From a virus: DNA of 64,000 nucleotides. The stretch lies in IMG/VR virus record IMGVR_UViG_3300045988_056936, positions 1 through 64,000 of that record; one strand, 5' to 3'. The notes below the pieces were generated by a model that saw only the letters and a program-made list of their open reading frames with translations, had not been told where the DNA came from and did no database searches. The translations under genes and the position numbers were made by a program. Each line of letters begins with the position of its first letter. The first letter of the stretch is position 1. This document shows positions 5,779 to 56,506 of this stretch, piece by piece.

Positions 5779-5779
5779 T

Positions 5780-8700: not shown

Positions 8701-9480
8701 TATATTCATTATCTGGATATCCAGGAATAGTTTCATGATTCTAATCTTCGTTTACTATAGTACAAGTGTCACCATAAACTCTTCTATAAACTGCAGCTGA
8801 ATCATCAGCTCTCCATTCATCTTTTAGTCTTTTCAAATCTTCTCTAGAGATTTCTTTTCCGTATTTAGCTAATATCTAGCTTTTACTCATCCATTTTCTA
8901 ACCACAACTCTATACGAATTTCTAACATATGGAGATTCTGGATTCCTATCTACGAAAGTATTTAAAGGATTCAGAACTTCTATTTCTATGTTAGTTCCAG
9001 AAGATGATGATTTTACTCTGAAAAATGTATAGCCAGTAATTAATAAATCTGTAAGTAACTATCGGAGTTTAGTTATTAAATCGGTTTCTCTAGACTGCAT
9101 AATATAATGAATAATATTCTATGCAGCTATCTCATATTGAGAAATAAAAGACTAATCAATGTCTTGAATAATTTTATCTAACTAAGTCTTCACGGCTTTA
9201 TCTGTAATATCTTTTCCGTCGATAAATTTCAGAATAGAATTACTTAAATGGTCTCTAAGAAATTTAACTATTCCTTTAGTTATTTCTAACTATTTTTCTC
9301 TAGTGATATTACTAATGGTATCTGAATCCTTACAAGAAATCTTCGGAAGGATAGGGGTTCCTAGATATTCTCCTACTAGAGCATCTACATGCTTTTTTAG
9401 TAATGGTGTAAATTCTACAGAAGTAGGACTACCTATTCCGAAGTTTTCTTCCAGGTAACGAAACTATTCTGGGTCTCTCT
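5780..9480 (-). CDS. Block of TAG-recoded virion/morphogenesis genes, not individually delimited. The ORF track is fragmented here because amber codons are sense codons
   Basis: All six frames lack long ORFs although the region is clearly coding: codon-like composition, minus-strand ORF fragments 6174..6479 and 8327..8563, and frequent CTA triplets on plus, which are TAG on minus. Confidence 0.3.
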
Positions 9481-9777
9481 TTCCGTTATAGTAATTATAG
9501 GCTTTCTATAATTCGTATTTATCATATACAAGCTCCGCAATAGCCTCGTTCGTCTTGTCTATCAGTTCTTTTTCTTTCATAACATAAATTATGCTGTTCT
9601 GGAGGAAGTTTAGTTGCATTATAGTATTTAACTCTTTGTAACTTCCTACTTCTTAATTCTTCCTTTATAAATGGGAGAAATTCTTCATCAGGTAAATCAG
9701 CTATAATGACTAAAGGCATCTCTGACCTATCAAAGTTAAACGATACCTTATAACCAACTGGATCTAGGTTCTGAATT

Positions 9778-12138
9778 TCAAGCCCACCTACGTATTCCAT
9801 TTTGTACAAGTCTCTCATATAACCTAGGATCACTTGTTTCAATTCTGTATGGGTCATCGTATTCATTTTTTTGTATGTTAGTTTCAAAAGTCTTAGAAGT
9901 TGGTATAACCCCAAATCTTTTGATTCCTCTCTCGTCGTAATAATAACCATAATCTTGGAATTGTTCAACTTCTTTTTCAACAAGCACTGGCTATCTTCCT
10001 GACAATTCCTAGTCTGCCAATTCTGTCATTCCCACAGCTGCTACAATATCGAATTTACCTTTATTCTCATCATTATATCCAGTAAATTGGTCTAACATTT
10101 CTTCAAACCATATAGTATGACAGAAATCCTCAATAAAGGCTGCTGTCAAATCAGTATGTTGTTCTATAATAGTTTTGGTAGCGGGTGTTCCGTACTATTT
10201 AGTAGTTCCATTCTTGACGTCTGTTAGAGTAGCTCTAGGTCTTTTCATAAAGTAGTTTAAACAACCCTTTTCTCTAGCCCAGGTAATCATACCTACACGG
10301 GTAGCTTCTATGTTTATTCTACAATTATAGTATCTAGCTAAACACATAGCTATTTTATAGGCTTCTCTAATGTCATTAGGTCTGTCTTTATACATAGCAA
10401 CATACTACGGTTCGTTTAGACCAAATGCTCTTCTTTTTATAGTTATACAGAAATCAGAAGGATCTCTTGTTTCTTTTGAAGTTTGACTAGCTCCTATATC
10501 AATACCGTCTATTCCTGCAACATATAAATCATGCATTTCTTTGTACGCTGGAGATTCAAATTCTTCTCCCCTTTCCTCGGCTTCCTATCTAAGTTTATCC
10601 ATCTACTCTTTATACAAATCAGACCATACAGGATGTTCAAGTATTTTTACTTTTCCGTTAATATTAGGAATCCATTTAAAACCATCTATATTATCCTAGG
10701 TGTGTTTATTATTTTTATAGAAATAGTCTATGTATCCAGATTCTGGTCTTGGTCCTATTTTCTTAAGTCTTATATTAGCTAACTGGTCCGCAATAAGAAT
10801 CTTGTTGAACTTGTTAACACCTTCAAGATTAAATGCTTCTTCTGCATTCCAACATCGTTCAGCACACTTCTTTAGATAGTCATCTGGAACTGCTAATAAA
10901 TTGTCGCGCTCTTCCTATAGATACTTCTTATATTCTACTGTATTACATACACCTCTATGGTCCATGTATTCTGAATTTAGAGACTAGACAAAATATGGAA
11001 TGAAGAACCCACTTTCAATAGTAGTCCCATCCTGGGTATAATTATGTCTAAATGGAAGAACTTTGTAAGCTTTTGGATTATAATATATCTTCTTAAGACC
11101 TGCTAATGGAGCGCCCATATCACCACCAGTACCTCCAAATAACATTGTTCCACGAGGTTTACCTTGAACTTCACAAAGCTCTTGTCCCTACACTACAGCA
11201 GTATCTAGTCCAGGCCAAGATCCTGCTTCATCATATATTAATAAGTCAACACGGTCTCCACGAATATTAGATGCCTTAGCTCCGTTTATTCCAACTACTT
11301 CCGATTTAAATCCAACATCCTCAAACTGTCCGTTTACCTTAATCTGTTTACCGGACTTCTTTCTTAAGTCTTGGTCAATCAAACGTAGTTTGAAGAATCC
11401 TCCTCCTGTACAAGTATTCAAGAATGTTAAAGCATTATCAAACTTACTAAAAGTACCTTTAAGGAAGGTATCATTAAAACAGGTAATCATTACTCTGCTT
11501 CTTCTGATTACTGAATACATTCTTGCAGATAAGGATGCATTTATTTCAGAGAATCCAATAGAACGAGCTTTCATAAGAGCTGCGTGTTTATGCAGAACTC
11601 TAGCCATCTATAGATAATGAAAGAACATATAATGAGATGCGAAAAATATAGGAAAGTCACTACTTGTTCCTTCTCCAGATGCCTTGTTATCATCAATAAT
11701 AGGAAGCTAGTAGAAGTTTAGGAAGAAATAGTTATCTCCAGTAATTGTATAACCATTAACAGTCATTCCATATTTACATCTTCTATACTATTCCTTCCAA
11801 AACTCATTATATCTCTTACTATCTTTTAGATATGGACAATACTTTCCAGTTTTTCTATATACTTCTCTGGTCTCAGTAAACCAATCTGGGTCGAAATCAA
11901 GACCATGTGTTTCATCTATTGGTCTATATCCAGTTATTTCATAAGATAAAGTAGGGTCAAATACCTCTATCTTATCTCCTCTTTTTACATCCCAATAATC
12001 AGCATTTTTGCCTCTTTCCTCTCTTATCTTCTATACTAGTTCTCTAGCTTCTTTGGCATCCTCTTTTTGTTCTTTCTCTCTTACCTAATCTACTATATTC
12101 TAGATTTCTTCAGGTAATATTTTTTTCTTTCTAGGCAT
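9778..12138 (-). CDS. terL: Terminase large subunit (TAG-recoded)
   Basis: ORF fragments 11188..11607 (..LIYDEAG.. Walker-B-like terminase ATPase motif), 10195..10395 and 9778..9987 share one frame. ATG at 12138-12136 and TGA at 9778-9780. In-frame TAGs link the fragments. Confidence 0.55.
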
Positions 12139-13520
12139 AATTAAAAGTCTCCTGGGTCAAAGCCGTCTGTAGCTCCACCTCTTACAGTAGATTGTTCTGT
12201 AAGCTCTTTCTTAACCTGCTCTTCTAGTGTTACTAATTCTTCATGAACTTTATGAAGAGTAGCCATTTCTTTCATTACCTTTTCAGCTTGAAAGACGGGT
12301 TTGCCATTATTATCACGTTCATTTAAATCTACTATAGTATCAAAATAATCAATAAACTAGTCAGCTGCTCTTTTAGCTGCTTCTAGAAGTTTTATTGATT
12401 TGTTAGAATCCTACAATGCTCGGTATTTTCTACAGGCTTCCCTGAATAACGGGTCATTAAATTCGGATTCAGATAGTCCAGAGTCACTAATAGCTTCATC
12501 ATGTCTTTCATGTTCTGAATATTGGCTATAGGGACTCTTCCAATCAATAGCTAGATAAATGTAAGATAATTCTCTAGTTACTCGTTCCTTGTCAACAGAT
12601 TTATCCCTCTGTATCAAAGCCTTAAACTCTTTAACTAGAAGAAGCTCTGGTTCATTTATTTCTAACTATTTAGTTAAAGTGTTATAATTAAATACATTCA
12701 TACTCATCAATCATTAACATTAACATCTTTAATCTTTTTATTTCATTTTAGAACCGCATTTACTTACTTTCATTTTAGAACCACAAGCATCTTTCTTAGC
12801 ATACTTTGTTCTATCTGGAACCCATTTTCCATTTTTAAAGTTTCCCTTGTGTCCTCTATTTGCCATGACCTCCTAGTCATTATATTTATTAATAGATACA
12901 GAATCTCTGGATGCTTCATCCTTTGCAGATTTCATATCCTTTTTATACTAAGCTCTTCCAGCCTTGAACTTGTCAACTTCATTAGCTTTCTTAGTAACCT
13001 TAGTTCCTTTCTATGCTTTTTGGCAAGCTTTGCAGATTCTTCCTCCCTGTTTAAAATAAACAAGTTCCTCTCCTTCTGGGCATACTCCTTTTAATTTTTT
13101 ATAGTATTCTAGTTTAGCTCCAAGTCTAGCCATAACTCCGCCTTGCATCTTCTACATAAATTCTTGATACTTGGCTTTGATTCCATCTTCTCCAAGCTAC
13201 TCAGCGTAAGCCTATAAATCTTGCTCTGATTGTAGTTGTATCCCTTGTGCTTGGGCATCTTGTATCAAGTATGCCATGAATGCTTTCTGTAATTCTTCCT
13301 AATTAGCCATTACTCTTCTACTTTAATTAAATCCTTTGTATTAAATACTGCTTCCTGCATTAATCCAGAATCAGTAAACCATCTACATCTTAGTCCTCGT
13401 AATCCTTGGTTATCTTTAAATAAAGCTGCTTCTCTTCTTAGAACAAGCATAACTGGAGAGTGCATTACTTTACACTACCGTAAAGTAACACAATCCCCAG
13501 GCTTAAAATAAACTTTTTCA

Positions 13521-19245: not shown

Positions 19246-19975
19246 AAATGCCCATATGAACTCCATCATTGGAACATTGGTCAACGGAGAAATCAACAAC
19301 AAAACAAAAAAAATCAAAACCGAGTTAACTTTTGTAGTAGTTTTAGTTTTTATGTCTGGCTGATAGGAAAGACTATCATTTCTAGTAAAATCGTGTATGT
19401 TTCACGTGAAAATATGGAGAGTAAGGAGAAGAATGTTCCACAAACTCAAAGGCAGATTTTCCTACTTTTTCCAGTTTTCAAAAAATCGCCAGTAGGACGA
19501 GTTTTATAACTCATACTACAATGATTATTTACTCTAACATTAGCCTATAAAAAGGCAACAAAAAGCGGGGTTACGCAGATAGCCCAATATCCGAAAATAA
19601 CTGCTATTAATGAAAATGAGAGTTCGCAAACTTATCTCATGAGTAAGGAGGATTGAGCTATAAGATTGGTCACTTATAGCAATATATGAAAGTACTGCTG
19701 ACATACAAGTAGACCATGTATGTCATATTTTTATATGTTATGCAATTGTATTAGAAGTTGCCTGGTATAAGCCGCTAGATTAATAAGGCTAGCTGATAAG
19801 AGGATACCTCATAAGGGTATATTTCCTACCTCGAACTCAGTCGCAAGAATATGGATTAGCTACCTATATTCTTAGTGAACGTTAGTAACGTAGCTATTTG
19901 ATTTTCAGTATAGGAAACTGAGAATTAAGTAGTTGAATAACTCTCTATCTTATACTAGTTGCCAAGATAGAGTTT

Positions 19976-20045
19976 TCCCCATTAGTATAATGCATTGCGC
20001 CTTCCTCTAAAGAAGGAGATTCTGGTTCAAACCCGGAGTGGGGAA
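19976..20045 (+). tRNA. Second CUA-anticodon (amber-suppressor) tRNA, Gln-like acceptor, atypical 3-bp D-stem
   Basis: Acceptor TCCCCAT/GTGGGGA (U1-A72, U7·G66) with discriminator A; anticodon stem CCTTC/GAAGG with loop CTCTAAA (CUA); T-arm TCTGG-TTCAAAC-CCGGA. The D-arm is weak (GTA/TGC). Confidence 0.45.
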
Positions 20046-20851
20046 CTTAGTATTTGAGGACTACAGCTACTTGTAGGCTCTATTTGCTGTTAAGGACTAT
20101 AATGGGTACGCCCAGAGACTATGTAATTGTTGTGAAACAATTCAAAGGAGAGTGGCACAGGAAGGTCTTTTGATAGTGTTCATTTTTTATCCCAACAGCG
20201 GTGGGGATATTTTTAAAACTCAGCCTAGGAGAGTATAAAATACCATCTGATGAGACTAGGACGAAATATACTTTGTATATAATGGTATAACTAATTAAAA
20301 CTAAGAAGATGAAAAAGAGATATATTATTCCAGAGGAACTGCATTTTGCTTCTGCTAGCTGTGGATTTGAATGTAATAATTATGACGAGGTATTAGCGTT
20401 TGCTGGATATTTTCTATCTATCGGGTGTTCCTTTGAGGTTTCGGATCTCTATATCGAACCAAAGGGGAATTTAATTCCTTTAAAACAGTCGAACGAAGAA
20501 AGGGATGTATGGGAATATCTCATGCTAGAGTTTTAATAACTAAAACATAAATATTATGAGCAAATTGACAAAAAAGAAAACAGAAACTCTCTATGCCAAA
20601 ATGGTAAGAGAAGAAAAAGCTATGCAAATTGCTGCTCAATATGGTCTTCAATATGAAGTACTTCAGTCTATTAAGGCTGGATGTACTCCAGAAGAAGCCT
20701 TACGTGAATGGGATTTAGTATAGCTTTCTTTAAAAAACTTAATAACTTTCCAAGTCATTGAGGACACCAGTTTCTTATATGTTACGCATGAGAGGTCGAA
20801 CATACTCCTTGCGATATAAGTTTTAGGTGTAAAATGCAATACTAGTTATAT

Positions 20852-21187
20852 ATGAAAGAGATAAAAATTCTAGAAACAACAAAAGTTCTCTCTGATAGAG
20901 AGGCTGATTTACTTTGTTCCGTATTATGGTCTTTAGGTATTTATCCAGAGATTACAGCACTTGAAAGGAAAAATAGAAACATTACACTGGCGAGTATTCT
21001 TCCAGAAATGCAACCTAGGACAGCTAGCCGTATTAGAGCTATGTTGGATGATCAAGTTTATATCTCTCTCAACATTTTCATGGAAAACTATTCTTGGCGT
21101 GATTTCATGAAAATGCCTGGTGTTGGAAGGAAATCGCTAAGTGATTTAAGATCAGTTTTGCAAAAGTACGGATACAAAACATTCTAA
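20852..21187 (+). CDS. Small protein whose C-terminus resembles the RNA polymerase alpha-subunit C-terminal domain HhH motif (..MPGVGRKSLSDLRSVLQKYGY..)
   Basis: Motif resemblance only. Confidence 0.25.
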   Translation: MKEIKILETTKVLSDREADLLCSVLWSLGIYPEITALERKNRNITLASILPEMQPRTASRIRAMLDDQVYISLNIFMENYSWRDFMKMPGVGRKSLSDLRSVLQKYGYKTF

Positions 21188-21200
21188 CTCGACTTCGCGA

Positions 21201-21209
21201 GTATAAATA
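21201..21209 (+). promoter_or_regulatory. cGaGTATAAATA motif, copy 4, upstream of recoded gene 21316..22507
   Basis: ttcgcgagtataaataggc. Confidence 0.3.
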
Positions 21210-21315
21210 GGCTTTAGGCGGAGAGCGGTAGGTAGAATAGTCTACCTACGTAGTGTAAAATACTTGCTATTTAGCAAACAAATGTGTAGTATTCTATAAA
21301 TAAAAATTAAATATT

Positions 21316-22507
21316 TATGGAAGACAAAGTAAAAGAATTTAGAGACAAAAATCCTATACTAGACTTCCTAGCAGGATTTATTCCTGGAGTTGGAGAAGCA
21401 TAGGACGCACATGATTTTATTCATGCCGCAAAAGATAAAGATTATATAAGTATGGGTTTAGCAGCTACAGGCTTAATTATTCCAGGAATCACAGGAGGGC
21501 AAATAAAGAAACTTTCAAACGTTTTAATAAAGAAAGGTTGGCGAGAAACGAAGGGAAGAATATTTGACCCATAGGGAGTTGAATACATTAGGAATAAAGA
21601 AGGAAAACTTCAAAGCTTATCATCTTACAGACAGACTCAAGCCGTAGAAAAAAGAATTGAGGAAAATAAGTCTAAGGCTAAAGCCAGATCTAATCAACAA
21701 AAGAAAGTAATCAAAGAGCATAACGAAGAAGCAGAAAAGTTTAGACTTCGAACGGGACTTGATTATTCTTTAGAAAATTGGCAATCACTAGCTTCAGGAC
21801 ATAAGATGTCACAAGAGGAAATAGACTTATTCACCAAAAAAGCTTTTCCCTAGTTTGTTCAAACTTATAATGAACTAATTAAGTCTGGTAAGCTGATAAG
21901 ATAGCCTAATGGAAGATATACTGCTAATGGAAGGAAGAATCTAAGCAACATAGAAACTATGTATTATATCTAGGCAAACTCTCCTCAAGGTAAGAATCTT
22001 TTATATAATGGTATCACAATGAGGTCTGGAATTAAGGATAAACATAGTTTTGAAACCGGAAAAAATAACCAGAATTATGAGAAATGGTTCAGTTCTAATC
22101 CAAGAGGAGCAAAAGCTTACGGAGACTTTGCAATCTGGGGACTACCAGTTAAACCTTCTATAATTAATCCCAACTGGGATGACTAGATTAGGCTTATAAA
22201 AAGGCAGAAAGCTAATCCATCTTCTAATAATTGGGCAGGAGGTCCAATAGGTGCTTATTTAAGCAAGGATAGAGCACGTTCTGTAAATATGTCTGAAGGT
22301 GTTCTTACAGACGATTATGCAACATAGGTTCTTAATTCTGACCCTATAAAAGGAGTATTTACTATAGTAGGTCCAGATATTCCTGTAAAATCTGTATTTG
22401 GAGGATCTGGAATGTACGATGTTAGTCCCAAAAAGCTATATAATCCATTCTTATCTCTTACCATGATGGGAATGCTAGGTTATAAACATTTAAATAAAGA
22501 TGAATAA
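21316..22507 (+). CDS. Hypothetical protein of about 395 aa, TAG-recoded (about 7 in-frame TAGs), TAA stop
   Basis: My manual translation from ATG 21316 runs about 395 codons with no TAA or TGA and ends ...MLGYKHLNKDE* overlapping the ATG of ORF 22500. It is invisible to the stop-to-stop ORF track. Confidence 0.45.
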
Positions 22508-22985
22508 ATTTACATTCAAAGAGTGGTGCCAACTGGCTATGCCTCACTCTCAATTAGATCAGAGTGGACTTCCTCTAGAAGAAACAAGACAACTTGCTCG
22601 CAAAATGTATCTTGGACTTGACAGATTCATTGAAGCACAAGATAAGTGGAATACTTATCAAACTGCCTTGGAAGAAGTCAAAGCAGGGAAGAAGAAAACA
22701 CATTGGATTTGGTTTATCTTTCCTCAAATGGAGGGACTTGGCACAAGTGAAAAGTCTCGTTACTACGGAATACGTGGGCGTGATGAAGCTATTGAATATA
22801 TCAACCATCCTATATTGAGAGATAGGTTAGTTGAAATCACAGAAGCGGTCTATAATAACGAGAAAACTGTTTACGAGATATTTGGAAACGATGTAATTAA
22901 AGTAAGGTCTTGTATGTTACTTTTCGCATCTGTTTCTGATATTCCTATCTTTCAAAAGATGCTTGAAAAGCATTGCTGGAGATAA
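22500..22985 (+). CDS. DUF1810-like protein (..HWIWFIFPQ.. motif)
   Basis: Motif recalled from the DUF1810 family. Function unknown. Confidence 0.35.
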   Translation: MNKFTFKEWCQLAMPHSQLDQSGLPLEETRQLARKMYLGLDRFIEAQDKWNTYQTALEEVKAGKKKTHWIWFIFPQMEGLGTSEKSRYYGIRGRDEAIEYINHPILRDRLVEITEAVYNNEKTVYEIFGNDVIKVRSCMLLFASVSDIPIFQKMLEKHCWR

Positions 22986-33563: not shown

Positions 33564-33980
33564 TTGGAATTTATGAATTATCAGTATTTCGGATTGTTTT
33601 TAAATGAACATAATAGGAATGAGCTTATGAAAATCATTTTTGCTAATCCTATTATAGCTAATCTGGTCCTTCAAAGAGGAAGTACTTTATATCTAGACCA
33701 TTGTACTCTGCTCCACAGAAATCAAAACGACAAAGAGATATATGACTCTCTTGTAAAGAAGATTGATGAATCATGGATGGTAGAAGTAAATGGGATAGGT
33801 TTCTCTAACAAAGCAATAGCTTTTAGAGTTACTATACCAGACTTGCCTTGTGCAAATGCTAAGCCACATATTACTATTTGCACAATCAATGGAGGAAAAC
33901 CAGTTGATAGCAATGGAATATGCGAGTGGATTTCTATTCCCAAACTCAATATTTGTTGTGAAATAAAATTAGTGAAATAA
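33564..33980 (+). CDS. 2H-phosphoesterase superfamily protein (LigT/2',5'-RNA-ligase/CPDase-like) with two HxTx motifs
   Basis: ..DHCTLLH.. and ..PHITICT.. are spaced like 2H enzymes. It is embedded in the tRNA array. Confidence 0.45.
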   Translation: MEFMNYQYFGLFLNEHNRNELMKIIFANPIIANLVLQRGSTLYLDHCTLLHRNQNDKEIYDSLVKKIDESWMVEVNGIGFSNKAIAFRVTIPDLPCANAKPHITICTINGGKPVDSNGICEWISIPKLNICCEIKLVK

Positions 33981-39977: not shown

Positions 39978-41311
39978 CTAAGTTATTTTTAACAATTAAA
40001 ATTAGATTATGGATTTCAAGAATCTTACGAAGGAATCTCTTCCGAAAGAATTTCAGGAGAGAATTGAACGTTTCAATCGTTTATTCATTGAAGCTGGTAA
40101 TGGTACATTTGAAGAAAATGACCTATTCGATTATGAAATGGCTTGTATAAAGCAAGCTCTATCATTTTCTGAGTTTTTCAAAGAAATGAGTCTGGAGGAA
40201 TGTAAAGCCTTCTATGAGAAATATCCTAGCTTATTTGAGCTGATTGAGGCTATCAAAGACAAACTTCCGTACTACGACAAAGGACATAGTGGAAATTCCA
40301 TGAGTATGAGTTGGATGCTATACAGGTGTTATAAGGAGAAACCTGAGCTTGTTCCTTATATGCATGGTTGTCTGGCTCAACTTGTTGGGGACGAAGGTTA
40401 TCATGATAATCGTTCTGATGTTCCAAAACTATGAGTGTAATACAACAAGTTTATTTAGCTGAAGCTGGTTATTCTATTTACATAAAGGGAATTAAACCAG
40501 ATAAGGATAATGAATGTTCTGGTGAGATTACTATAAATGGTAATCCCACTAGATTAGAGAGAAAAGAACGCTATCATATTGATGGCAGTATGCTTGTAAC
40601 TGACAATTACCACATTCCTATGGACTTCATAATTAGTTTTTTACAAGCTAATAATTCTGTTGAACAGAAAGAGGATGGTAAAATGTATGTTGTTCTAAAA
40701 GAAGTGGAATTTAAACTCAATAAATAATGTTATCAATACTTTATGACGAATACCTAAAATGGGGTTGTCCCAACTGTGGTTGTGATACCATTAAAGGTAG
40801 TTGTGTATCTGGAGGAGGTTTAACTTCTGGTACTTGTAGGCACTGTGGTATACATTTTGAAGTAAGGAGCGATAATCCTACTATGAAGTGTTTGTATGGA
40901 GCTTATCCAGAGAATCCGTCTGACCCAAACTCTGAATGGGTAAAGGAAGAAGCTATAAGAATAGACCATCCTAGAAAAGGTATTTCTCCTTGGCATTGGA
41001 AACCAAAAGACATTCGTCCAGAGGAAGGAGAATACTGGAGTTCTAGAGGTGTTGGATATGATTTATCTGGATTCGTAAAAACTAAAGCTGCTGGTGAACG
41101 TATTTTAGCTATGGTACGAGAAGTTCTTGGAACCGATGACTGTGAATCTTGGTTAGATTATAGACCAAGCGAGCCAACTTGGATTCAATTCAAGTTTCAA
41201 TCTAGCGAGTTTGACCTAGAGAAACTGAATAAGTTATCTAGAGAAGCTAATAACGTAATTACTAAGGAAATAATTAAACAATGTAAACTCCCGTCTAATT
41301 GACGGGAACAT

Positions 41312-41872
41312 GGGCCTACTTGGATTTGACAGGCGATTACGAATTATAAGGACGTGTAGAGCGCAATCTCTTTAAACGAAGAAAACAAATAACTGCAGAA
41401 ATTGCACCTGTAAGAATGGCAGCCTAAGCTGCTGGCTTGTTGGTAGACACTATTAACTAAGTCGGGTTACGGGAGAGACCTAGAAACAGAAGAGGTTGAG
41501 TATATTGATATAATGGAGAGCTAGGCTCTAATCCTAGTAATATACTCTTAATCAGAACACTCTAAGAGTTAGTAAGACTGAATCTCCTACGTCATAAAAC
41601 AGATGGAAGATGTGTTCCATGAGATGTGACGAATCTCTAAAGTATCATCCCGTTCTCCAACGTAAATGGAGTGGTGGAACGTTGACTTCGGTCAGCCCTA
41701 TAGTTTGGTAGCTTGTAGATAAGCATCTAGAGAAATACTTAGTATGGACTCTTGTAAGACTTATAAAACTACCTAAATGCTAGAACTCCCTAGCTGATGT
41801 AATAAAAATGAGACGCACGTTATCCTTGTAACGAGGGTTGTTTGGACACGGGTTCGACTCCCGTTAGGTCCA
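41312..41872 (+). ncRNA. ssrA: tmRNA-like (SsrA) RNA. tRNA-like ends flank a long internal region (about 560 nt)
   Basis: The 5' end GGGCCTACTTGGATTTGACAGGCG compares with E. coli tmRNA GGGGCUGAUUCUGGAUUCGACGGG. The 3' end GGACACGGGTTCGACTCCCGTTAGGTCCA compares with GGACGGGGGUUCAAAUCCCCCCGGCUCCA. The 5' GGGCCTA pairs with the 3' TAGGTCC. A possible tag ORF ends ..VRMAA-TAA (gcagcctaa) at about 41430. Confidence 0.45.
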
Positions 41873-41878
41873 CATAAT

Positions 41879-41952
41879 AGGGCTATAGCTCAACTGGTTA
41901 GAGCACCACACTGATAATGTGGAGGTTATCAGTTCAAGTCTGATTAGCCCTA
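41879..41952 (+). tRNA. tRNA-Ile(GAU)
   Basis: Acceptor AGGGCTA/TAGCCCT; D-arm GCTC/GAGC; anticodon stem CCACA/TGTGG with loop CTGATAA; T-arm ATCAG-TTCAAGT-CTGAT. Confidence 0.8.
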
Positions 41953-42029
41953 CAAAACCGCCAGCTCACGCGGTATATAAGAAAGGATTGCCGGACTCGC
42001 AGGTGTAACGAGATAAATACCTGCATTTT

Positions 42030-42102
42030 CGAGGCTGTGGTGTAATGGCTTGCATATCACACTGTCACTGTGAAGGTTGGGGTTCGAATCCCCCAGTCTC
42101 GG
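42030..42102 (+). tRNA. tRNA-Asp(GUC)
   Basis: Anticodon stem TCACA/TGTGA with loop CTGTCAC; T-arm (T)GGGG-TTCGAAT-CCCC(C); acceptor CGAGGCT/AGTCTCG. Confidence 0.65.
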
Positions 42103-42109
42103 CATTTAT

Positions 42110-42182
42110 TCCCCTGTAGTTTAGTTGGTTAGAACACGTGATTTGTAATCTCGAGACCTCGGTTCGAATCCGAGTGGGGGAT
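42110..42182 (+). tRNA. tRNA-Thr(UGU)
   Basis: Acceptor TCCCCTG/TGGGGGA; D-arm GTTT/GAAC; anticodon loop TTTGTAA; T-arm CTCGG-TTCGAAT-CCGAG. Confidence 0.7.
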
Positions 42183-42888
42183 CTTTGGTAATTTAATAGA
42201 TTAATTATTTATGACTAGATTAGAAAAGTATTTATTAGCAACAGCTTCCGAGATTATCGAAGCTGAAACCACTGTTTCTCGCTACTTTGTCATTGGAAAC
42301 GTCAAAGTTAGAGTATCAGACCATTTAAGTAAAATGAGTGATGCAGACTTACAAGTAATTATCCCATTGAACGGAGGGACTAAGTATATAGTTACTGTTA
42401 AGGATAGTCCTGGAAAATTTCTTGTATGGAATGCAACTCAAATAAAAGACTTTATTCCTTCATTGCAGATTATTAAGGGCTTGAAGGAAGGAGTGCAACT
42501 TAAGCCAAAACCTAAAGACTCTGCAGTTCAGAAGATTCAGCTAGCATTAAATAATAGTAATACCGATGGAGGTTCGTTAACGTTCGATGGTACTATTATC
42601 GAGTCTAGATTGAAAGAAAAGCAACTTACCTCCAAACAGCGGGAAGTTTTCAGGAGAACTAAATCTACTTGGGATATTTCTCAGATTGGAACATTACCCA
42701 GTATGATTAAAGTAGATTTGGGATTGTCAAATGGTTCTGTAAACGAAGATGTGCAGATATTTCTAACTTGTACATCTTTAACCTACAAAGAAATTCTGAA
42801 CATTTATAAAATAATAGTTGTTGATAACCATATGGTTCCAACTATTAAACTGTTGCAAGAAGCTTATAGCTTAATTGTGCAGTAGGAT

Positions 42889-42960
42889 AGCGCCATCATC
42901 TAATGGTTAGGATTCAGGCTTTTCACGCCTGCCATACGGGTTCGAATCCCGTTGGCGTTA
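42889..42960 (+). tRNA. tRNA-Glu(UUC)
   Basis: Acceptor AGCGCCA/TGGCGTT; anticodon stem CAGGC/GCCTG with loop TTTTCAC; T-arm ACGGG-TTCGAAT-CCCGT. Track ORF 42923..43108(-) over it is spurious. Confidence 0.7.
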
Positions 42961-44734
42961 CTATGTACCCCAGCAGCGGAAGTTGTTGGGGTATTTTTTG
43001 TTTAATATAATTAATAATTGATGAGAAAAACATTTGAGTTTGTAAAGGTTGGAGGAGTCTGGTTCTATTGGTGGCCAGATTATGACGGAACACCAGAGGA
43101 ACTAGCAATGGTTGGTGGTGCAGATGAACTTCTTGATTCTCTAGATAATAAGTTTGTTAGATTGCAGATGGTTGACCCAGCTGCAGCTAAGATAACGTTG
43201 TCTAAAATTGAGGAGGATGAATGTGGAGCAACTTACTTATGCAAAAGTAAGAATTACAATGACAGGGTATGGATTTGTGCTGTAACTCTATCAGTATTCG
43301 GGGAATATCCTCAAAATATTTACCTAAAAGATATGTAAAAAATGAAAACGTTAAATGAGATTTTAGACAATTACAAAGACTATGCCGTAGTTCTCGATGA
43401 CCGTTTCGGTTCTAGATTAGCAAAGTTTTTAACAGAAGAGCAGTTAGAAAAAATAGGCTTCAAGTACGATGGTGATGAGCCTTATCCAGAGCCTAAGGAA
43501 TGGACTAGAGAGAATATCCTAGAGCAACTTAAGTCTGACGTGGAGTTTGGTTTTGAGAAGGCTCTAGACCAGAGAGGCATTTCAGCTAGCCTAATGTTCT
43601 ACGTGGTACTAAGGTGGAATCAAGTTCTAGAAGAGGGCTTAGAGAATTATCCTGAAGAGAATTATGCTATGTATATGGGTTGCCTTTGTTTAAGGCTACT
43701 GCTGTAAAGTATGGATGGGAGAATCCTATAGGCGACGATAATGGGGACGAAGAGTTCTACAATGAGTAGCGCTATGAAGGAATCTTCTATACTTAAAGCA
43801 ATTTCTGACGCTATTGAAGAATACGAGGAAAATCAACAAAGACGAATAGACCTGTTAGAGAGTAAAATTCTGCTATTTGAGAGAGAAAGGGAGGCTTTTA
43901 TTCGGCATTTGAGAGAAGGAAACATTCAATTATTAAAGGATTATCTAGGAATTAAAGATGAGTAAGTACTATTTAATTAAGGAATGTAATAATATTCCTT
44001 TTATCTTAGGACAGTTCGATAGTATTGAAGAGGCTGAGGCCGCTCTTCCTTCTACAAATAAGAAGGGAGCTAAGCACTTTGTCGTTTGTTCTACAGAGCA
44101 ATTAAAGTCAGCAAGGGCGGCTATATCCTACTTACAAGAAGAACTTAGAAAGAGTCGAGAGGAGGTACGGCAATGGAGGGATTTAGAACTTAAAACAAGG
44201 CTAGATTTCTCAAACCAAATCTGTGAATTATCGAAGATAGCTAATCTAACTGTAGAGGACCTAACTAAAGTATTGTTATGATAGTAAGTTCTCCTTTTGA
44301 TAAAGATTTGCTTGGACATGAGATAAGGGGTGTAAATACATCTTACTACGGACTTTCTGCATTGCAGGCTGTAATAAATCATGACGGAATCCGTCAAGAT
44401 ATTGCAAAATATATGTATAGAGACTGCATTGTAGATGGAGGACGAAAAGGAGTAATCATAGGATTTGAGGATAATAATCAATTCTTTGATTACTACTATA
44501 TAGTCTATGTGCCAGAGCTAAATACTACTGTATATCAATTAGCTAATGATGCGAGATTTATTAATTCAATTGAGATATGAAAGTATATTATATTTCAATT
44601 CCCACGGCATATGACGGGCAAGTCCCTATAAACTATGAGAAGATCTCTCCTCTTTTTCTAGAGAAGAAAGACGCTATAGAATGGGCGGTAACTCAAAATT
44701 ACTGGGATATTAGATTAATAGAAGAAGAAGTTTT

Positions 44735-45229
44735 ATGAAAAAGAAAGTTTTAATTATCCTTATGATTAGTATTGTATTCGGATTTGCAACTGGTTATTCT
44801 TTGCATCATCTGATACATTTCAATCAGAAACAGGAGGAAATGGTATTGCTGCCAGAGCATCCATTCTACTTATTGGATGAAGTAAACGAAGAAGTATTGT
44901 ACAATACTTTGAAGCATTACGATTTTCCAAATCCAGCAATTATAACAGCTCAGGCTGTTCTGGAATCTGGCAATTTTAAATCGAAACTTTGTAAGGATAA
45001 TAACAATCTGTTCGGGTTGTATAACTCCAGAACAATGTCTTACTTCAAGTTCGATAGTTGGATAAGCTGCGTGTTCGCTTATAAGCAATTTATCCTTAGT
45101 AGGTATAACCCAGAAGAGGATTATTACAAATTCCTAGACAGAATTGGCTACGCTGAGGATTCCTTGTATGAAAGTAAAGTTAAGGAATTGGAATTAGATA
45201 TACTTAATAAATATGGAAGCTCAAATTGA
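44735..45229 (+). CDS. Peptidoglycan hydrolase, glucosaminidase/FlgJ-like domain (endolysin or virion lysin)
   Basis: N-terminal TM/signal, then ..ITAQAVLESGNFKSKLCKDNNNLFGLYN.. matching the glucosaminidase motif (AQAxLESG...NNLFGI). Confidence 0.55.
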   Translation: MKKKVLIILMISIVFGFATGYSLHHLIHFNQKQEEMVLLPEHPFYLLDEVNEEVLYNTLKHYDFPNPAIITAQAVLESGNFKSKLCKDNNNLFGLYNSRTMSYFKFDSWISCVFAYKQFILSRYNPEEDYYKFLDRIGYAEDSLYESKVKELELDILNKYGSSN

Positions 45230-45560
45230 AGAAGCTATCAAATTTAGAAAGAAAGCTAATTTCAAGATATTAACTAGATTAAGTCAAATCATTGACCAAT
45301 ATCCTTATCTAAGATTTCACCAAATTCTTATTATATATAAGATTAGTGAGCTGGGAGTGGATAAGTTCAATGAGGAGAGTGTAGAAACTTTGAAGAAGCT
45401 AGAGCATGAAATGGTGGAAAAAGGAATTAGTAAGATTACTAGTAATAGTTCTGATGGGAACAATACTATTAGTAACTAGGGAAGTAACGGGTTTTGAGAC
45501 CGCAGTTATGACTGGTCTAACTATTATATTATGCAATCAAATATTTAACGAATAAAGATT

Positions 45561-52061: not shown

Positions 52062-53078
52062 ATGAAGAAAATTTTTAGTATTATTTGTTTGTGTTTAATG
52101 TGCGTGTTTGCTAGCGCACAAGTTGTTGAAACTGGAAGTTTGAAAGATAACTGGTATGTTTCTGGTAATGTAGGTACCACAATTTGGGACAACTCAAGAA
52201 GTTGGGCTGAACCTCATGATGTATTAGTAAATATTGCGGTGGGTAAAGAAATTACTCCTATCTTCGGACTAGAGTTAGATATGATGGCAGGTATGAATCA
52301 AGGCAGTAAAACGTTCTTCGATTCCCATAACCTTACAGCTAATGTAACTACTAATCTAACTAATCTTATTTGTGGATACGAAGGCTCTAGACGTTTATTT
52401 GAGCCTGTATTACTGATAGGTGCTGGTTGGTATCATACTTATGGTGATGTTTATAATAATGTATCTGCAAGAGGTGCAATTAGATGCAACTTTAATATTA
52501 CTGATAGTTGGGCACTAAATGTTACTCCAGAGTATATGCTACTTCCAAAGACTACTCCTCTAAATCATGAAGTAAATGTTTATATAGGAGCCACTTACCG
52601 GTTTAAGTCTAATAAAGGAAACTTTCCTATGATGAAACTATATAGTGACGCTGAAGTAGAAAGTCTTAATGCTGCTATTAACGAGTTGAGGGTTAAGAAT
52701 AGCGAATTGGAATCTCGTAAACCAGTAGAAATAATTAAGACTGATACTATAGTAGTTACTAAGGTAGAACTTCTTACACCTAAAATTCAGTTTTTACAGA
52801 ACTCTTCTGAAATCTCTACAACTTCTAATGTTGCAGTATCGGAGTTAGCAGCTTATATTTCAAATAGTGGTAAGTCATATATGATTGAAGGATATGCTTC
52901 TGAAGAAGGTCCAGTAGATTTTAATGACAACTTAGCTGTAGCTAGAGCAGAATCTATGAAGAAGGCCCTTATCAGTTATGGCGCTCCAGAGGATAAGCTT
53001 ATAGTTAAAGGCTGCGGAAGCACTACTGAGTTTGGAGATAGAGAATTTAACAGAATCGTAATCGTAACAGAACAATGA
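52062..53078 (+). CDS. OmpA-family outer-membrane protein (signal peptide, beta-barrel, OmpA_C peptidoglycan-binding domain)
   Basis: MKKIFSIICLCLMCVFASAQ. The C-terminal ..EGYASEEGPVDFNDNLAVARAESMKKAL..GCGSTTE.. matches OmpA_C. Confidence 0.6.
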   Translation: MKKIFSIICLCLMCVFASAQVVETGSLKDNWYVSGNVGTTIWDNSRSWAEPHDVLVNIAVGKEITPIFGLELDMMAGMNQGSKTFFDSHNLTANVTTNLTNLICGYEGSRRLFEPVLLIGAGWYHTYGDVYNNVSARGAIRCNFNITDSWALNVTPEYMLLPKTTPLNHEVNVYIGATYRFKSNKGNFPMMKLYSDAEVESLNAAINELRVKNSELESRKPVEIIKTDTIVVTKVELLTPKIQFLQNSSEISTTSNVAVSELAAYISNSGKSYMIEGYASEEGPVDFNDNLAVARAESMKKALISYGAPEDKLIVKGCGSTTEFGDREFNRIVIVTEQ

Positions 53079-54140: not shown

Positions 54141-54965
54141 TTGACTATGAGTAAGATAATAGGGCAAGACAAGTTAATTAAGGAAGTTAATAGAATATTT
54201 CAGGTATTTGTAAATAGTAATTGCAAGATAAGACCGCACTTTATTCTTACAGGTGAGAGCGGGTCTGGTAAGAGCTTTACTATTAAACAGTTATGTGATA
54301 TGAATGAACTTAGCTTTCTAGAAGTTAATGCAGCTCAAATAACTAAAGAGGGTATTTCTGGAAATAGTTTAAGCAAAATTCTATCTCCACTTGTTAACTA
54401 TAGTCACACACCTATTGTAGTCTTCGTAGACGAGTTTGATAAACTTTTCATCAACGGAAACACTAATAGCCAACTGGCTAATGAATCTACTGCCAGTGTA
54501 CAGAACGAGTTTCTCAAACTTTTAGAGTCTGATACTACTAGTGTTTTTGGCGATTATGGGAAGTACATATCAGTCCCTATTGATAATGTACTATTTGTGT
54601 TTGCTGGAGCATTCAATAATGAGCCTCACATTACATTAGATAGACTAAGAGACTTTGGAGTTAAAACAGAGTTTCTTGGAAGAGTAGGATTAATCTACAA
54701 TACTAAACCTCTCACTCTAGAGGATTTGTATTCTATCTTGGAGTGTTCAGACTTGTTGCAGAATTATCTTGACTTATTCTTTAATGTAAATAGAGAACAA
54801 GTCATTAGTGATTTGAAAGGGTATCTCGAAAGTTCTTTTCGCAATAATACTCTTGGAGCAAGAACAATTAATACTCTTATTCACCAATACTTTATCAAAG
54901 GTGGAAAACTCGAAACTGAAGAAGTAAAAGAAATAACTTTTAACAAAAAATTAGAATGGAAATAA
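54141..54965 (+). CDS. AAA+ ATPase (ClpX/HslU-like core)
   Basis: Walker A GESGSGKS, Walker B VVFVDEFDKLF, sensor ..FVFAGAF... Confidence 0.55.
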   Translation: MTMSKIIGQDKLIKEVNRIFQVFVNSNCKIRPHFILTGESGSGKSFTIKQLCDMNELSFLEVNAAQITKEGISGNSLSKILSPLVNYSHTPIVVFVDEFDKLFINGNTNSQLANESTASVQNEFLKLLESDTTSVFGDYGKYISVPIDNVLFVFAGAFNNEPHITLDRLRDFGVKTEFLGRVGLIYNTKPLTLEDLYSILECSDLLQNYLDLFFNVNREQVISDLKGYLESSFRNNTLGARTINTLIHQYFIKGGKLETEEVKEITFNKKLEWK

Positions 54966-56506
54966 TTAATGCTACAGATGGTTACAAGTTGGGCCATCAC
55001 AGAATGTACCCCGAAGGTACTGAACAAGTTTATAGTAACTGGACTCCTAGAAGTAATAAATACTTCCCAGAAGCAACCGAAGGTTCAGTAGTATTTGGTA
55101 TTCAATACCTAATCAAAGAATATCTCATTAAACAGTTTGAGAAAAACTTCTTTAATCTACCAAAGAAGGAAGCTGTGGAGATGTTCTATCGTAGAGTAAA
55201 CAACTTTGTTGGTATTGAATCCGTTGGGTACAGACATATTGAAGCTTTATATGACCTTGGGTATCTACCAATTCGCATAAAGGCTCTTCCTGAAGGTTCT
55301 GTGTGCCCTATTCGGGTTCCCATGATGACCATTACAAATACTCTACCCGAGTTCTTTTGGTTAACTAACTACTTAGAGACTATTATCAGCTGTACCTTGT
55401 GGATGCCATGCACATCTGCTACTAGAGCTAGGCTTTATAAGAAAGAGCTACATCGTCATGCTTGCAAGACTGGTTTTCCAACAGATGTAAATCTTGGTTT
55501 TTGTTGTCATGATTTCTCAATGCGAGGTATGGCGGGAATGGAAGCCGCAATTATATCTGGTATGGCGCATATGACTTCTTTTGTGGGAAGTGAAACTATT
55601 CCAGCTATTGCTGCTTTGGAAGAATATTATGGAGCTAATTCAGACGAGGAATTGATTGCTGCTACAGTTCCAGCAACAGAACACTCTGTAATGTGTGCTG
55701 GAGGGGAGGAAGATGAGCTGGGCACTTTCAAACGTCTAATTAATGATTTGTATCCTTCTGGGTTTGTTTCTATTGTATCTGATACTTGGGATTTCTGGAA
55801 TGTAATTGAAAATTTCTTGCCCAAGCTGAAGAAAGACATTATGGCTCGTGATGGTAGAGTAGTAATCCGTCCTGATAGTGGAGACCCAGTAGATATAATC
55901 TGCGGGTTGAGAACTAATCCTCACTTCAATACCAGAATGAAAGAAGGTAAGTATTATTGCTGCTATGCTCCGTTTAACGACGATGCAGAGTATGTTGAAG
56001 TGTCCGAAGGTCAATATTATGGGGCATATTATATGCTTGGTAAAATCTTCGGATGGAATACTACTTCAAAGGATTACCGTTATCCTAGCACTAAGGTTGG
56101 TCTGCTTTATGGAGATTCTATTACTCTGGAACGTCAAAAGCAAATCTACTTGAGATTAGAAAACGCTCATATGGCGGCTTGTAATCTCGTTCTGGGAGTA
56201 GGTTCATATTCCTATCAGTATGCAAGTAGAGATAGTCTTGGGTTTGCTATTAAGGCTACTGCTTGCGTAGTAAATGGCGAATTGAAAGAAATCTTCAAAC
56301 ATCCTAAAACTGATGATGGTACTAAGAACTCTTTGAAAGGTTTGATTGCTGTCTATAAATGTCTGGATGGGAAGTATACTGCTACCGACCAGGTCTCAAT
56401 CGAGGAGGAAAAAGAGGGATGCTTAGAGACTGTCTTTGAAGATGGTATCTTGAAGAAAGAATATTCTCTTGAAGAAATCAGACAAAGAATTGACCATGGA
56501 CTTTAA
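54956..56506 (+). CDS. nadV: Nicotinamide phosphoribosyltransferase family protein (NAMPT/NadV-like; candidate Namat of an NAD+ reconstitution pathway)
   Basis: N-terminal ..INATDGYKLGHHRMYPEGTEQVYSNWTPRS.. matches the NAMPT start (ATDSYK..H...YP). Length 516 aa. Confidence 0.75.
   Translation: MEIINATDGYKLGHHRMYPEGTEQVYSNWTPRSNKYFPEATEGSVVFGIQYLIKEYLIKQFEKNFFNLPKKEAVEMFYRRVNNFVGIESVGYRHIEALYDLGYLPIRIKALPEGSVCPIRVPMMTITNTLPEFFWLTNYLETIISCTLWMPCTSATRARLYKKELHRHACKTGFPTDVNLGFCCHDFSMRGMAGMEAAIISGMAHMTSFVGSETIPAIAALEEYYGANSDEELIAATVPATEHSVMCAGGEEDELGTFKRLINDLYPSGFVSIVSDTWDFWNVIENFLPKLKKDIMARDGRVVIRPDSGDPVDIICGLRTNPHFNTRMKEGKYYCCYAPFNDDAEYVEVSEGQYYGAYYMLGKIFGWNTTSKDYRYPSTKVGLLYGDSITLERQKQIYLRLENAHMAACNLVLGVGSYSYQYASRDSLGFAIKATACVVNGELKEIFKHPKTDDGTKNSLKGLIAVYKCLDGKYTATDQVSIEEEKEGCLETVFEDGILKKEYSLEEIRQRIDHGL

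Follow-up and report, generated by a model that had tools for sequence, protein, structure and literature searches.

Phage-encoded tmRNAs are an established phenomenon. [quoted passage not shown] A reduced form is represented by the element of mycobacteriophage DS6A, which consists of the tRNA-like domain only; molecules of this type are inhibitors of tmRNA and may act by titration of SmpB (PMC4131195). The locus analysed here is new in three respects: it belongs to a lineage of TAG-recoded crAss-like phages of the human gut, its pseudoknot domain is enlarged and varies in a modular way, and the detector that is usually applied misses the gene.

The window, by which we mean the whole analysed stretch of 64,000 nucleotides (positions 1 to 64,000 of IMG/VR record IMGVR_UViG_3300045988_056936), had received a preliminary description in which a tmRNA-like RNA with SsrA-type ends was proposed at 41312-41872. 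This proposal holds. The segment begins with GGGCCTACTTGGATTTGACAGGCG at 41312 and ends with GGACACGGGTTCGACTCCCGTTAGGTCCA at 41872, and the covariance-model search that the description had suggested as a check places it in RF00023 with 66.2 bits, above the gathering threshold of 47 (Rfam scan of the 64-kb window; E 1.3e-23; match 41312-41875, model positions 1-374). A relative (L125) matches the same model over its full length with 69.9 bits. The model of two-piece, permuted tmRNAs (RF04321) scores only 20.0 and 19.6 bits at the locus against a gathering threshold of 47, and the pieces follow one another in the standard one-piece order, not the permuted one. The segment is a genuine one-piece tmRNA gene, confirmed far beyond chance:

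41312-41872, + strand: complete one-piece tmRNA (ssrA-like) gene, 561 nt from G1 to the discriminator A (RF00023; homology breaks at the ends)

All features of one-piece tmRNAs that can be tested on a sequence are found in the gene, except for an encoded CCA and a demonstrable pseudoknot 1. We regard it as very probable that this is a functional tmRNA gene, located in the tRNA array of a divergent, TAG-recoded crAss-like phage of the human gut with a genome of about 185-190 kb.

ARAGORN is the usual annotator of phage tmRNAs, employed for instance by the Pharokka pipeline and in the survey of huge phages, and had likewise been suggested as a check. In the intact window the program called 27 tRNAs but no tmRNA. 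Applied to the family members it gave either no call or, in a 515-nt type, the wrong tag VQQKDDRATVLNLKAKG. Copies shortened in silico by deletion of at least 153 nt of the middle were called as tmRNAs with the tag AEIAPVRMAA at nt 84-116, so that the failure on the intact gene reflects a spacing or length limit and not a defect of the gene. Because the tmRNA of this crAss-like lineage is missed or mis-tagged by ARAGORN, the carriage of tmRNAs by phages is probably under-counted.

The two ends of the RNA form a tRNA-like domain, to which helix 2 is joined:

41312-41329, + strand: 5' acceptor strand GGGCCUA, containing the G3 of G3·U70, and the D-loop-like CUUGGAUUUGA (sequence; 7/7 pairs invariant in 18 distinct sequences)
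41330-41357, + strand: 5' strand of helix 2, with its partner at 41815-41844 (23 pairs, all standard or G·U, invariant)
41358-41371, + strand: hairpin AGAG-CGCAAU-CUCU at the position of pseudoknot 1 (4 bp; the PK1 stem columns of the Rfam model are flagged as non-canonical)
41815-41844, + strand: 3' strand of helix 2, pairing with 41330-41357 (RNA positions 19-46 with 504-533)
41848-41872, + strand: T-arm ACGGG-UUCGACU-CCCGU, 3' acceptor strand UAGGUCC with U70, and discriminator A (sequence, Rfam, alignment)

The acceptor halves, whose complementarity had been remarked on in the initial reading, form a perfect 7-bp stem between both ends of the RNA (G1-C560, G2-C559, G3·U558, C4-G557, C5-G556, U6-A555 and A7-U554, numbered from G41312). 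Acceptor stem and canonical T-arm together comprise 12 pairs, none of which departs from standard or G·U pairing in any of 18 sequences, and the alanine identity elements are in place with G41314·U41869, which corresponds to G3·U70, and the discriminator A41872. Helix 2 is recovered by RNAalifold as well as in the single-sequence minimum free energy structure. Neither the tRNA-like domain nor helix 2 varies among family members, so that the support for their pairing comes from the Rfam model and not from covariation. Many bacterial tRNA and tmRNA genes do not encode the terminal CCA, which is added post-transcriptionally. In the phage gene, too, CCA is not encoded: its 3' end reads ...GGUCCA-CAU, with -GGA or -CUA in relatives, and the CCA would therefore need to be added after transcription. 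Pseudoknot 1 is important in E. coli tmRNA. At the corresponding site of the phage RNA no convincing second stem was found besides the hairpin, since the candidate pairings exclude one another, are equally compatible with the sequences and show no covariation.

The preliminary description had also pointed to a short frame ending in MAA-TAA, and had named the resume codon as a feature to be looked for. The frame is indeed there (ATG GCA GCC TAA, with the stop codon at 41425-41427, nt 114-116), and in the Rfam alignment the resume codon is GCA 41395-41397:

41395-41427, + strand: tag frame with GCA resume codon, AEIAPVRMAA and stop TAA (Rfam alignment; ARAGORN on shortened copies; three variants in relatives)
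41419-41432, + strand: helix 5, GCAGC-CUAA-GCUGC, with the stop codon in the loop (folding and alignment)

The frame was assigned independently by Rfam and, on the shortened copies, by ARAGORN. AAAUAACU stands directly before the resume codon and puts U-A-A at positions -5 to -3, where E. coli tmRNA has U-A-G. The relatives reveal three versions of the tag: GCA GAA AUU GCA CCU GUA AGA AUG GCA GCC UAA, which encodes AEIAPVRMAA (version 1); GCU (G/A)CU UAU AGC GAA GUA AGA AUG GCA GCC UAA, which encodes A(A/T)YSEVRMAA (version 2); and a form of version 2 ending in GCG UGA, in which the change from GCC to GCG is synonymous (version 3). Although 10 of the 15 nucleotides of the first five codons are changed between versions, the length of ten codons, the frame, the VRMAA end and the position of the stop codon in the loop of helix 5 are kept. 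Retention of length, frame, end and stop despite sequence change is the signature of a translated tag and not of a protein gene. The stop codon is TAA or TGA in 18/18 variants and never TAG. Tags ending in MAA are found in other tmRNAs, and ...ALAA tags are common on other viral contigs. Because the hydrophobic-Ala-Ala end resembles known degrons, degradation of tagged products is plausible, and by this analogy the tag end probably marks them for proteolysis.

Compared with the 374 positions of the model, the RNA of 561 nt is about 50% longer than usual, and the RF00023 alignment contains 273 nt inserted relative to the model. The roughly 380 nt between helix 5 and the 3' strand of helix 2 are composed of a conserved scaffold and three variable modules that are swapped between relatives (M1, RNA positions 187-236; M2, 277-339; M3, 401-457):

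41434-41463 (RNA 123-152), + strand: hairpin Ha, 13 bp with one bulge (covariation: G-C to A-U once, G·U to A-U three times)
41464-41497, + strand: nearly invariant scaffold with the local hairpin GGGUU...GACCU, GGAGA and AGAAACAGAAGAGGU (alignment)
41498-41547, + strand: variable module M1, a closing helix of 9-10 bp with an inner hairpin or pseudoknot (four unrelated sequences at this site in relatives)
41548-41587, + strand: conserved scaffold with the hairpin ACUC-UAA-GAGU (AGCC-AAA-GGUU in other types) and an invariant UCUCC (alignment)
41588-41650, + strand: variable module M2, 63 nt here and 27-63 nt in relatives, holding the 7-nt and 8-nt indels
41655-41696, + strand: hairpins Hb (CUCCA/UGGAG) and Hc (GUUGAC-UUCG-GUCAGC) with the conserved GGUGGA between them (helices kept with different sequences in other types)
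41702-41778, + strand: variable module M3, enclosed by the helix GUUUGGUAG.../...CUACCUAAAU (G-C, G·U and A-U are all seen at pair 397:461)
41779-41812 (RNA 468-483, 498-501), + strand: hairpin Hd GCUAG-AACUCC-CUAGC, the loop of which can pair with UGAG at 41809-41812 (pseudoknot-4-like; stem nearly invariant)

The modules differ in sequence while keeping a related form. Each of the four M1 versions has a closing helix, of 6 to 11 bp, and three of the four fold more stably than shuffled controls, with z-scores of -2.6, -2.0 and -3.3. In M3, three pairs of the inner helix are changed on both sides, and inspection of the sequences indicates that an H-type pseudoknot is possible in types 4 and 5 (GCUGG/CCAGC and GCUAG/CUAGC). 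The pairing between the Hd loop and its tail comprises 3 bp in the window and 4 bp in 14/18 relatives, with no covariation. At least seven helical elements can be counted in the pseudoknot region, more than three pseudoknots need, and some of these elements covary. A scan of alignment columns for long-range partners of the invariant GGAGA, UCUCC and GGUGG returned only competing pairings that fit equally well and do not covary. The same kind of scan gave a high score to a helix between positions 145-151 and 392-398, which we rejected as it conflicts with hairpin Ha, for which the compensatory support is better. Copies of the variable modules were not found elsewhere in the 64-kb window. The architecture is clearly that of a tmRNA with an enlarged, modular pseudoknot domain, the topology of which is partly worked out.

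Two pattern scans detected the gene, in the same synteny, on 27 viral contigs of IMG/VR with lengths of 45-192 kb, most of them above 100 kb and many of 180-192 kb. In a comparison of 28 related loci, homology ends precisely at G1 on one side and A561 on the other, with three different contexts upstream and five downstream, and these breaks therefore mark the ends of the RNA. Within the gene, about 300 nt are identical in 18/18 distinct aligned sequences, whereas identity in the DNA that flanks it in these phages is only 75-98%. To the invariant part belong helices 2 and 5, the tRNA-like domain, the second half of the ten tag codons, several segments of the scaffold and the hairpin that stands in the place of pseudoknot 1; the tRNA-like and tag parts are under strong purifying selection.

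A blastn search for more distant homologues against 50,697 phage records returned only two unannotated faecal fragments, which belong to the same lineage. The 25-nt 3' end has a single exact match in 185,579 species genomes, on a 29.8-kb contig of a Clostridium MAG that shows the order tmRNA-Ile-Asp-Thr-Glu as in the phage and is evidently a mis-binned phage. With this as the only match, neither the gene nor an attachment site corresponding to it is carried by any bacterium among these genomes. The gene may be dispensable, since its acceptor stem is broken in L096, one of the family members. MT835470, a relative with 42% terminase identity, has no Rfam match and neither tRNA nor tmRNA.

That the gene is part of a genuine phage genome is shown by the crAss-like terminase-like gene and the structural-gene-sized ORFs in the same window. 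The terminase-like protein shares 26-28% identity with large terminases of crAss-like phages and 42-45% with two unannotated faecal phage records. That the phage recodes a stop codon, as had been stated in advance, is borne out by ten minus-strand genes at 287-13310 with 2-32 in-frame TAGs each and by two tRNA(CUA) genes in the window. With TAG read through, the frames of these ten genes extend over 188-786 codons and include the terminase-like and structural-gene-sized ORFs. One of the tRNA(CUA) genes is closely similar to the tRNA-Gln of this phage, which fits a reading of TAG as Gln. Most plus-strand genes from 18 to 64 kb have no in-frame TAG and end in TAA or TGA, and the tmRNA is located in this standard-code part of the genome, inside the array of 27 tRNAs. 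The adjoining tRNA-Ile named in the preliminary description begins six nucleotides past the 3' end of the RNA:

41879-41953, + strand: tRNA-Ile(GAT), the first of the downstream run of tRNAs (ARAGORN, Rfam), followed by Asp at 42030, Thr at 42110 and Glu at 42889

The only strong terminator-like site follows tRNA-Glu (42965-42994). Neither a promoter of its own directly upstream of the tmRNA nor a terminator directly downstream of it was found, and two terminator-like matches within the tmRNA gene itself are accounted for by helix 5 and hairpin Hc. This arrangement, with no adjacent promoter and a terminator only past tRNA-Glu, makes co-transcription and tRNA-type processing likely. SmpB was not found in the 64-kb window by tblastn with an approximate E. 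coli SmpB query, which makes a weak test, or among 30 ORFs searched with Pfam, and the same 30 ORFs showed no release-factor gene and no RF1 inhibitor. A scan of 33 ORFs, among them every ORF close to the gene, revealed no integrase. The ORF directly upstream (40727-41302; conserved, 191 aa) has no Pfam or PHROG match. As a partner protein of the tmRNA it was rejected, because three distant large contigs have it in densely packed gene arrays that show neither a tRNA nor a tmRNA in the vicinity; with 246 homologues it is a widespread phage protein.

Judged from its sequence and surroundings, the tmRNA would be transcribed together with the neighbouring ORFs and tRNAs, and host tRNA-processing enzymes would cut the transcript at G1 and A561 before CCA is added. 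Alanyl-tRNA synthetase (AlaRS) of the host would then recognize G3·U70 and charge the RNA with alanine. Together with SmpB, presumably that of the host, and EF-Tu, the charged RNA is expected to enter ribosomes stalled at the 3' ends of mRNAs. Translation would resume at GCA 41395, adding Ala and AEIAPVRMAA to the nascent chain, termination at UAA would free the ribosome, and the released product would probably be directed to proteolysis by its hydrophobic-Ala-Ala end. The most likely purpose is a high capacity for ribosome rescue during infection, as for the rest of the translation kit of the phage. An extra demand for rescue that arises from TAG suppression is speculative.

The last point could be taken further by regarding the tmRNA as part of the code-switch toolkit, an explanation that we consider unlikely. 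Suppression of TAG, perhaps together with inhibition of RF1, would let ribosomes read through TAG-terminated host and early mRNAs to the ends of these, or would make them stall at hungry UAG codons; the tmRNA of the phage would take up this load and put its own tag on the products. The preliminary description had offered a loosely stated hypothesis in this direction, namely rescue at unsuppressed TAGs. The evidence for such a role is circumstantial: TAG is recoded in this phage, two suppressor tRNAs with the anticodon CUA are present, no paper in the literature library searched joins phage tmRNA with recoding, and the absence of TAG as tag stop throughout the 18 variants would suit it, although tmRNA frames normally end in UAA anyway. 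The exchange of modules could, on these terms, reflect a conflict with an RNA-targeting host factor. The mechanics are less favourable: tmRNA-SmpB requires an empty mRNA channel and does not act at an internal UAG unless the mRNA has been cleaved before, and in a host with the standard code RF1 terminates at UAG so that no stall arises. In E. coli devoid of RF1, tmRNA tags proteins at unassigned UAG codons and decides the propagation of UAG-containing viruses, but tagging at UAG has been demonstrated only without RF1 (Ma et al, 2018; PMC6207430), and among the 30 ORFs of the window searched neither a release-factor gene nor an RF1 inhibitor was seen. On at least 11 other viral contigs, tmRNAs occur in tRNA arrays with no suppressor tRNA within the 3-15 kb examined in each, and huge phages and mycobacteriophages also have tmRNAs.

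We think it improbable that the RNA acts as a decoy or competitor, binding SmpB, AlaRS and stalled ribosomes in place of the host tmRNA and thereby either blocking trans-translation of the host or replacing its degron by a tag that spares products of the phage. Inhibition of tmRNA by molecules such as the DS6A element provides a precedent, the tag of the phage is unlike the common ...ALAA tags of other viral contigs, and the bulky, fast-changing middle might be poorly suited to passage through the ribosome. A pure decoy, however, would not be expected to conserve the surroundings of the resume codon, the reading frame, the length and VRMAA end of the tag and the place of its stop codon. The tag also has a degron-like hydrophobic-Ala-Ala end, and MAA ends are known from other tmRNAs.

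There is very little to recommend the view that the gene is a decaying or neutral passenger of bacterial origin, or a mimic of the attachment site for integration into the ssrA gene of the host. The version with the destroyed acceptor stem (L096) and the highly variable middle would agree with decay, whereas the stretch of about 300 invariant nucleotides between flanks of 75-98% identity would not. A mimic of the attachment site would be expected neither with a complete gene in place of a 3' fragment of ssrA nor with neighbours among which no integrase was seen, and the 25-nt 3' end points to no bacterial donor or site in 185,579 genomes other than the mis-binned phage contig.

That the segment is a TAG-recoded protein gene with a coincidental likeness to tmRNA, the outcome that the preliminary description had named as refuting it, has practically no chance of being correct: frames of 84 codons (- strand) and 77 codons (+ strand) do open when TAG is read as sense, but no long ORF was seen by that description either and the longest standard-code frame has 44 codons, the Rfam E is 1e-23, conservation follows RNA helices and not codons, and the 7-nt and 8-nt indels and non-homologous module swaps between near-identical relatives rule out coding.

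A functional tmRNA serving ribosome rescue thus stays our preferred reading, and it would make the gene one more item of the translation kit, which is the most likely outcome and an ordinary finding. If the code-switch explanation were true instead, the phage would supply a high-capacity tmRNA that recycles ribosomes from TAG read-through. The finding matters in that a tmRNA is conserved across a whole lineage of abundant crAss-like phages of the human gut. It also provides a testable handle on ribosome rescue in a TAG-recoding phage, since the tag ...VRMAA can be searched for in faecal metaproteomes, data of a kind that served to validate code 15 in crAss-like phages (PMC9523058), and the module-swapped 561-nt architecture constitutes a natural data set on the replaceable parts of tmRNA.

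In comparison with known systems, the phage RNA is closest in plan to bacterial SsrA (RF00023). It shares the acceptor stem closed by both ends, G3·U70, the T-arm and the long helix 2, as well as the GCA resume codon after an A-rich U-A-A/G motif, the 10-codon tag, the stop codon in the loop of helix 5 and a 3' region that is probably rich in pseudoknots. It departs from SsrA in its length (561 nt against a model of 374 positions), in having only a hairpin at the position of pseudoknot 1, in its three exchanged modules, and in being encoded by a phage without a matching bacterial gene in 185,579 genomes. Like the tmRNAs of mycobacteriophages and phage G, it is a complete ssrA in a large, tRNA-rich phage; in contrast to these, it comes from a crAss-like lineage of the human gut with another host range and TAG recoding, and there is no detectable sequence kinship beyond the universal T-arm. 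With the huge phages it has in common a phage-encoded translation kit of tRNAs and rescue factors, whereas the family is missed by ARAGORN, SmpB was not seen in the 64-kb window, and the genome is below the 200-kb threshold of 'huge' phages. As a phage-borne, tmRNA-derived RNA that could compete for SmpB it resembles the DS6A element, but unlike that element, which is limited to the tRNA-like domain, it has kept helix 5 and a conserved in-frame template for the tag.

In many relatives, the tRNA-Ile that follows the tmRNA gene (41312-41872, plus strand) is swapped from the D-loop onward for a different tRNA-like sequence, AGGGCTATAG(C/T)TCAAC(C/T)GATTGGGATGTAGTTTAACGG..., and in other relatives 90-750 nt of unrelated DNA are inserted immediately past the tmRNA 3′ end. 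Such replacements or insertions were recorded on the viral contigs L050, L071, L074, L081, L090, L117, L118, L121, L122, L124 and L125. These sequence rearrangements suggest a recombination hot spot at the tmRNA 3′ end.

On the contig of one family member, L096 (IMGVR_UViG_3300045988_063986, positions 7390-7990), the tmRNA T-arm is joined to tRNA-Glu sequence comprising the T-arm and the 3′ acceptor strand of that tRNA. About 1.1 kb is gone as a result (tRNA-Ile, tRNA-Asp, tRNA-Thr and the ORF 42211-42885, in window coordinates), and the tmRNA acceptor stem is lost through the fusion. Because the T-arms of the tmRNA (41848-41865) and of tRNA-Glu (42936-42953) are identical at 17 of 18 positions in the window, the fusion looks like a product of either homologous recombination or chimeric assembly. 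If real, it would represent a tmRNA knockout occurring in nature.

The ORF missing from L096 is listed below together with one inside the tRNA array.

ORFs in and beside the tRNA array
33573-33980, plus strand, ORF of 135 aa inside the tRNA array, match to PF08302 (E 5e-8)
42211-42885, plus strand, ORF immediately 3′ of the tmRNA/tRNA cluster, TAG at codon 225 of 230

In fungal tRNA ligase, PF08302 is the phosphodiesterase domain, and the match hints at a tRNA-repair function of the phage. The second ORF is among three candidate genes with an in-frame TAG within the last few codons (also 33129-33464 and 45168-45497), and its read-through extension would enter tRNA-Glu. In nearly every other TAG-free gene, TAA or TGA closes the frame directly.

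Within the tmRNA, a 4-bp helix (U83-G84-C85-A86 paired with U98-G99-U100-A101, window 41394-41412) covers the resume codon. Between the two versions of the tag cassette (10 versus 8 sequences), this helix shows a compensatory change from A-U to U-A. The pairing may have arisen by chance or may serve as a structural element for presenting the resume codon.

Elsewhere in the window, structured RNAs cluster around one TAG-suppressor tRNA (19753-21255, plus strand), and auxiliary genes are found in the early region.

Structured RNAs around the suppressor tRNA, and auxiliary genes of the early region
19753-19946, plus strand, RAGATH-14 RNA (183 bits)
19976-20046, plus strand, TAG-suppressor tRNA(CUA), 30 nt past the RAGATH-14 RNA
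20217-20286, plus strand, RAGATH-1 hammerhead
21187-21255, plus strand, pistol ribozyme
22500-22985, plus strand, DUF1810 protein (auxiliary)
52062-53078, plus strand, OmpA-like outer-membrane protein (auxiliary)
54956-56506, plus strand, nicotinamide phosphoribosyltransferase (auxiliary)

The self-cleaving ribozymes flanking this code-change tRNA may have a role in its processing or regulation.

Unusually long tmRNAs of about 467 nt also occur on other viral contigs, with atypical ARAGORN-predicted tags that lack an Ala-Ala end: APV(P/S)LMGL on L020, L053 and L056, and a tag of 27 aa for the 467-nt tmRNAs of L075-L077 and L112. Since ARAGORN mis-assigned the tag in the tmRNA family of the window, these atypical tags may be wrong as well.
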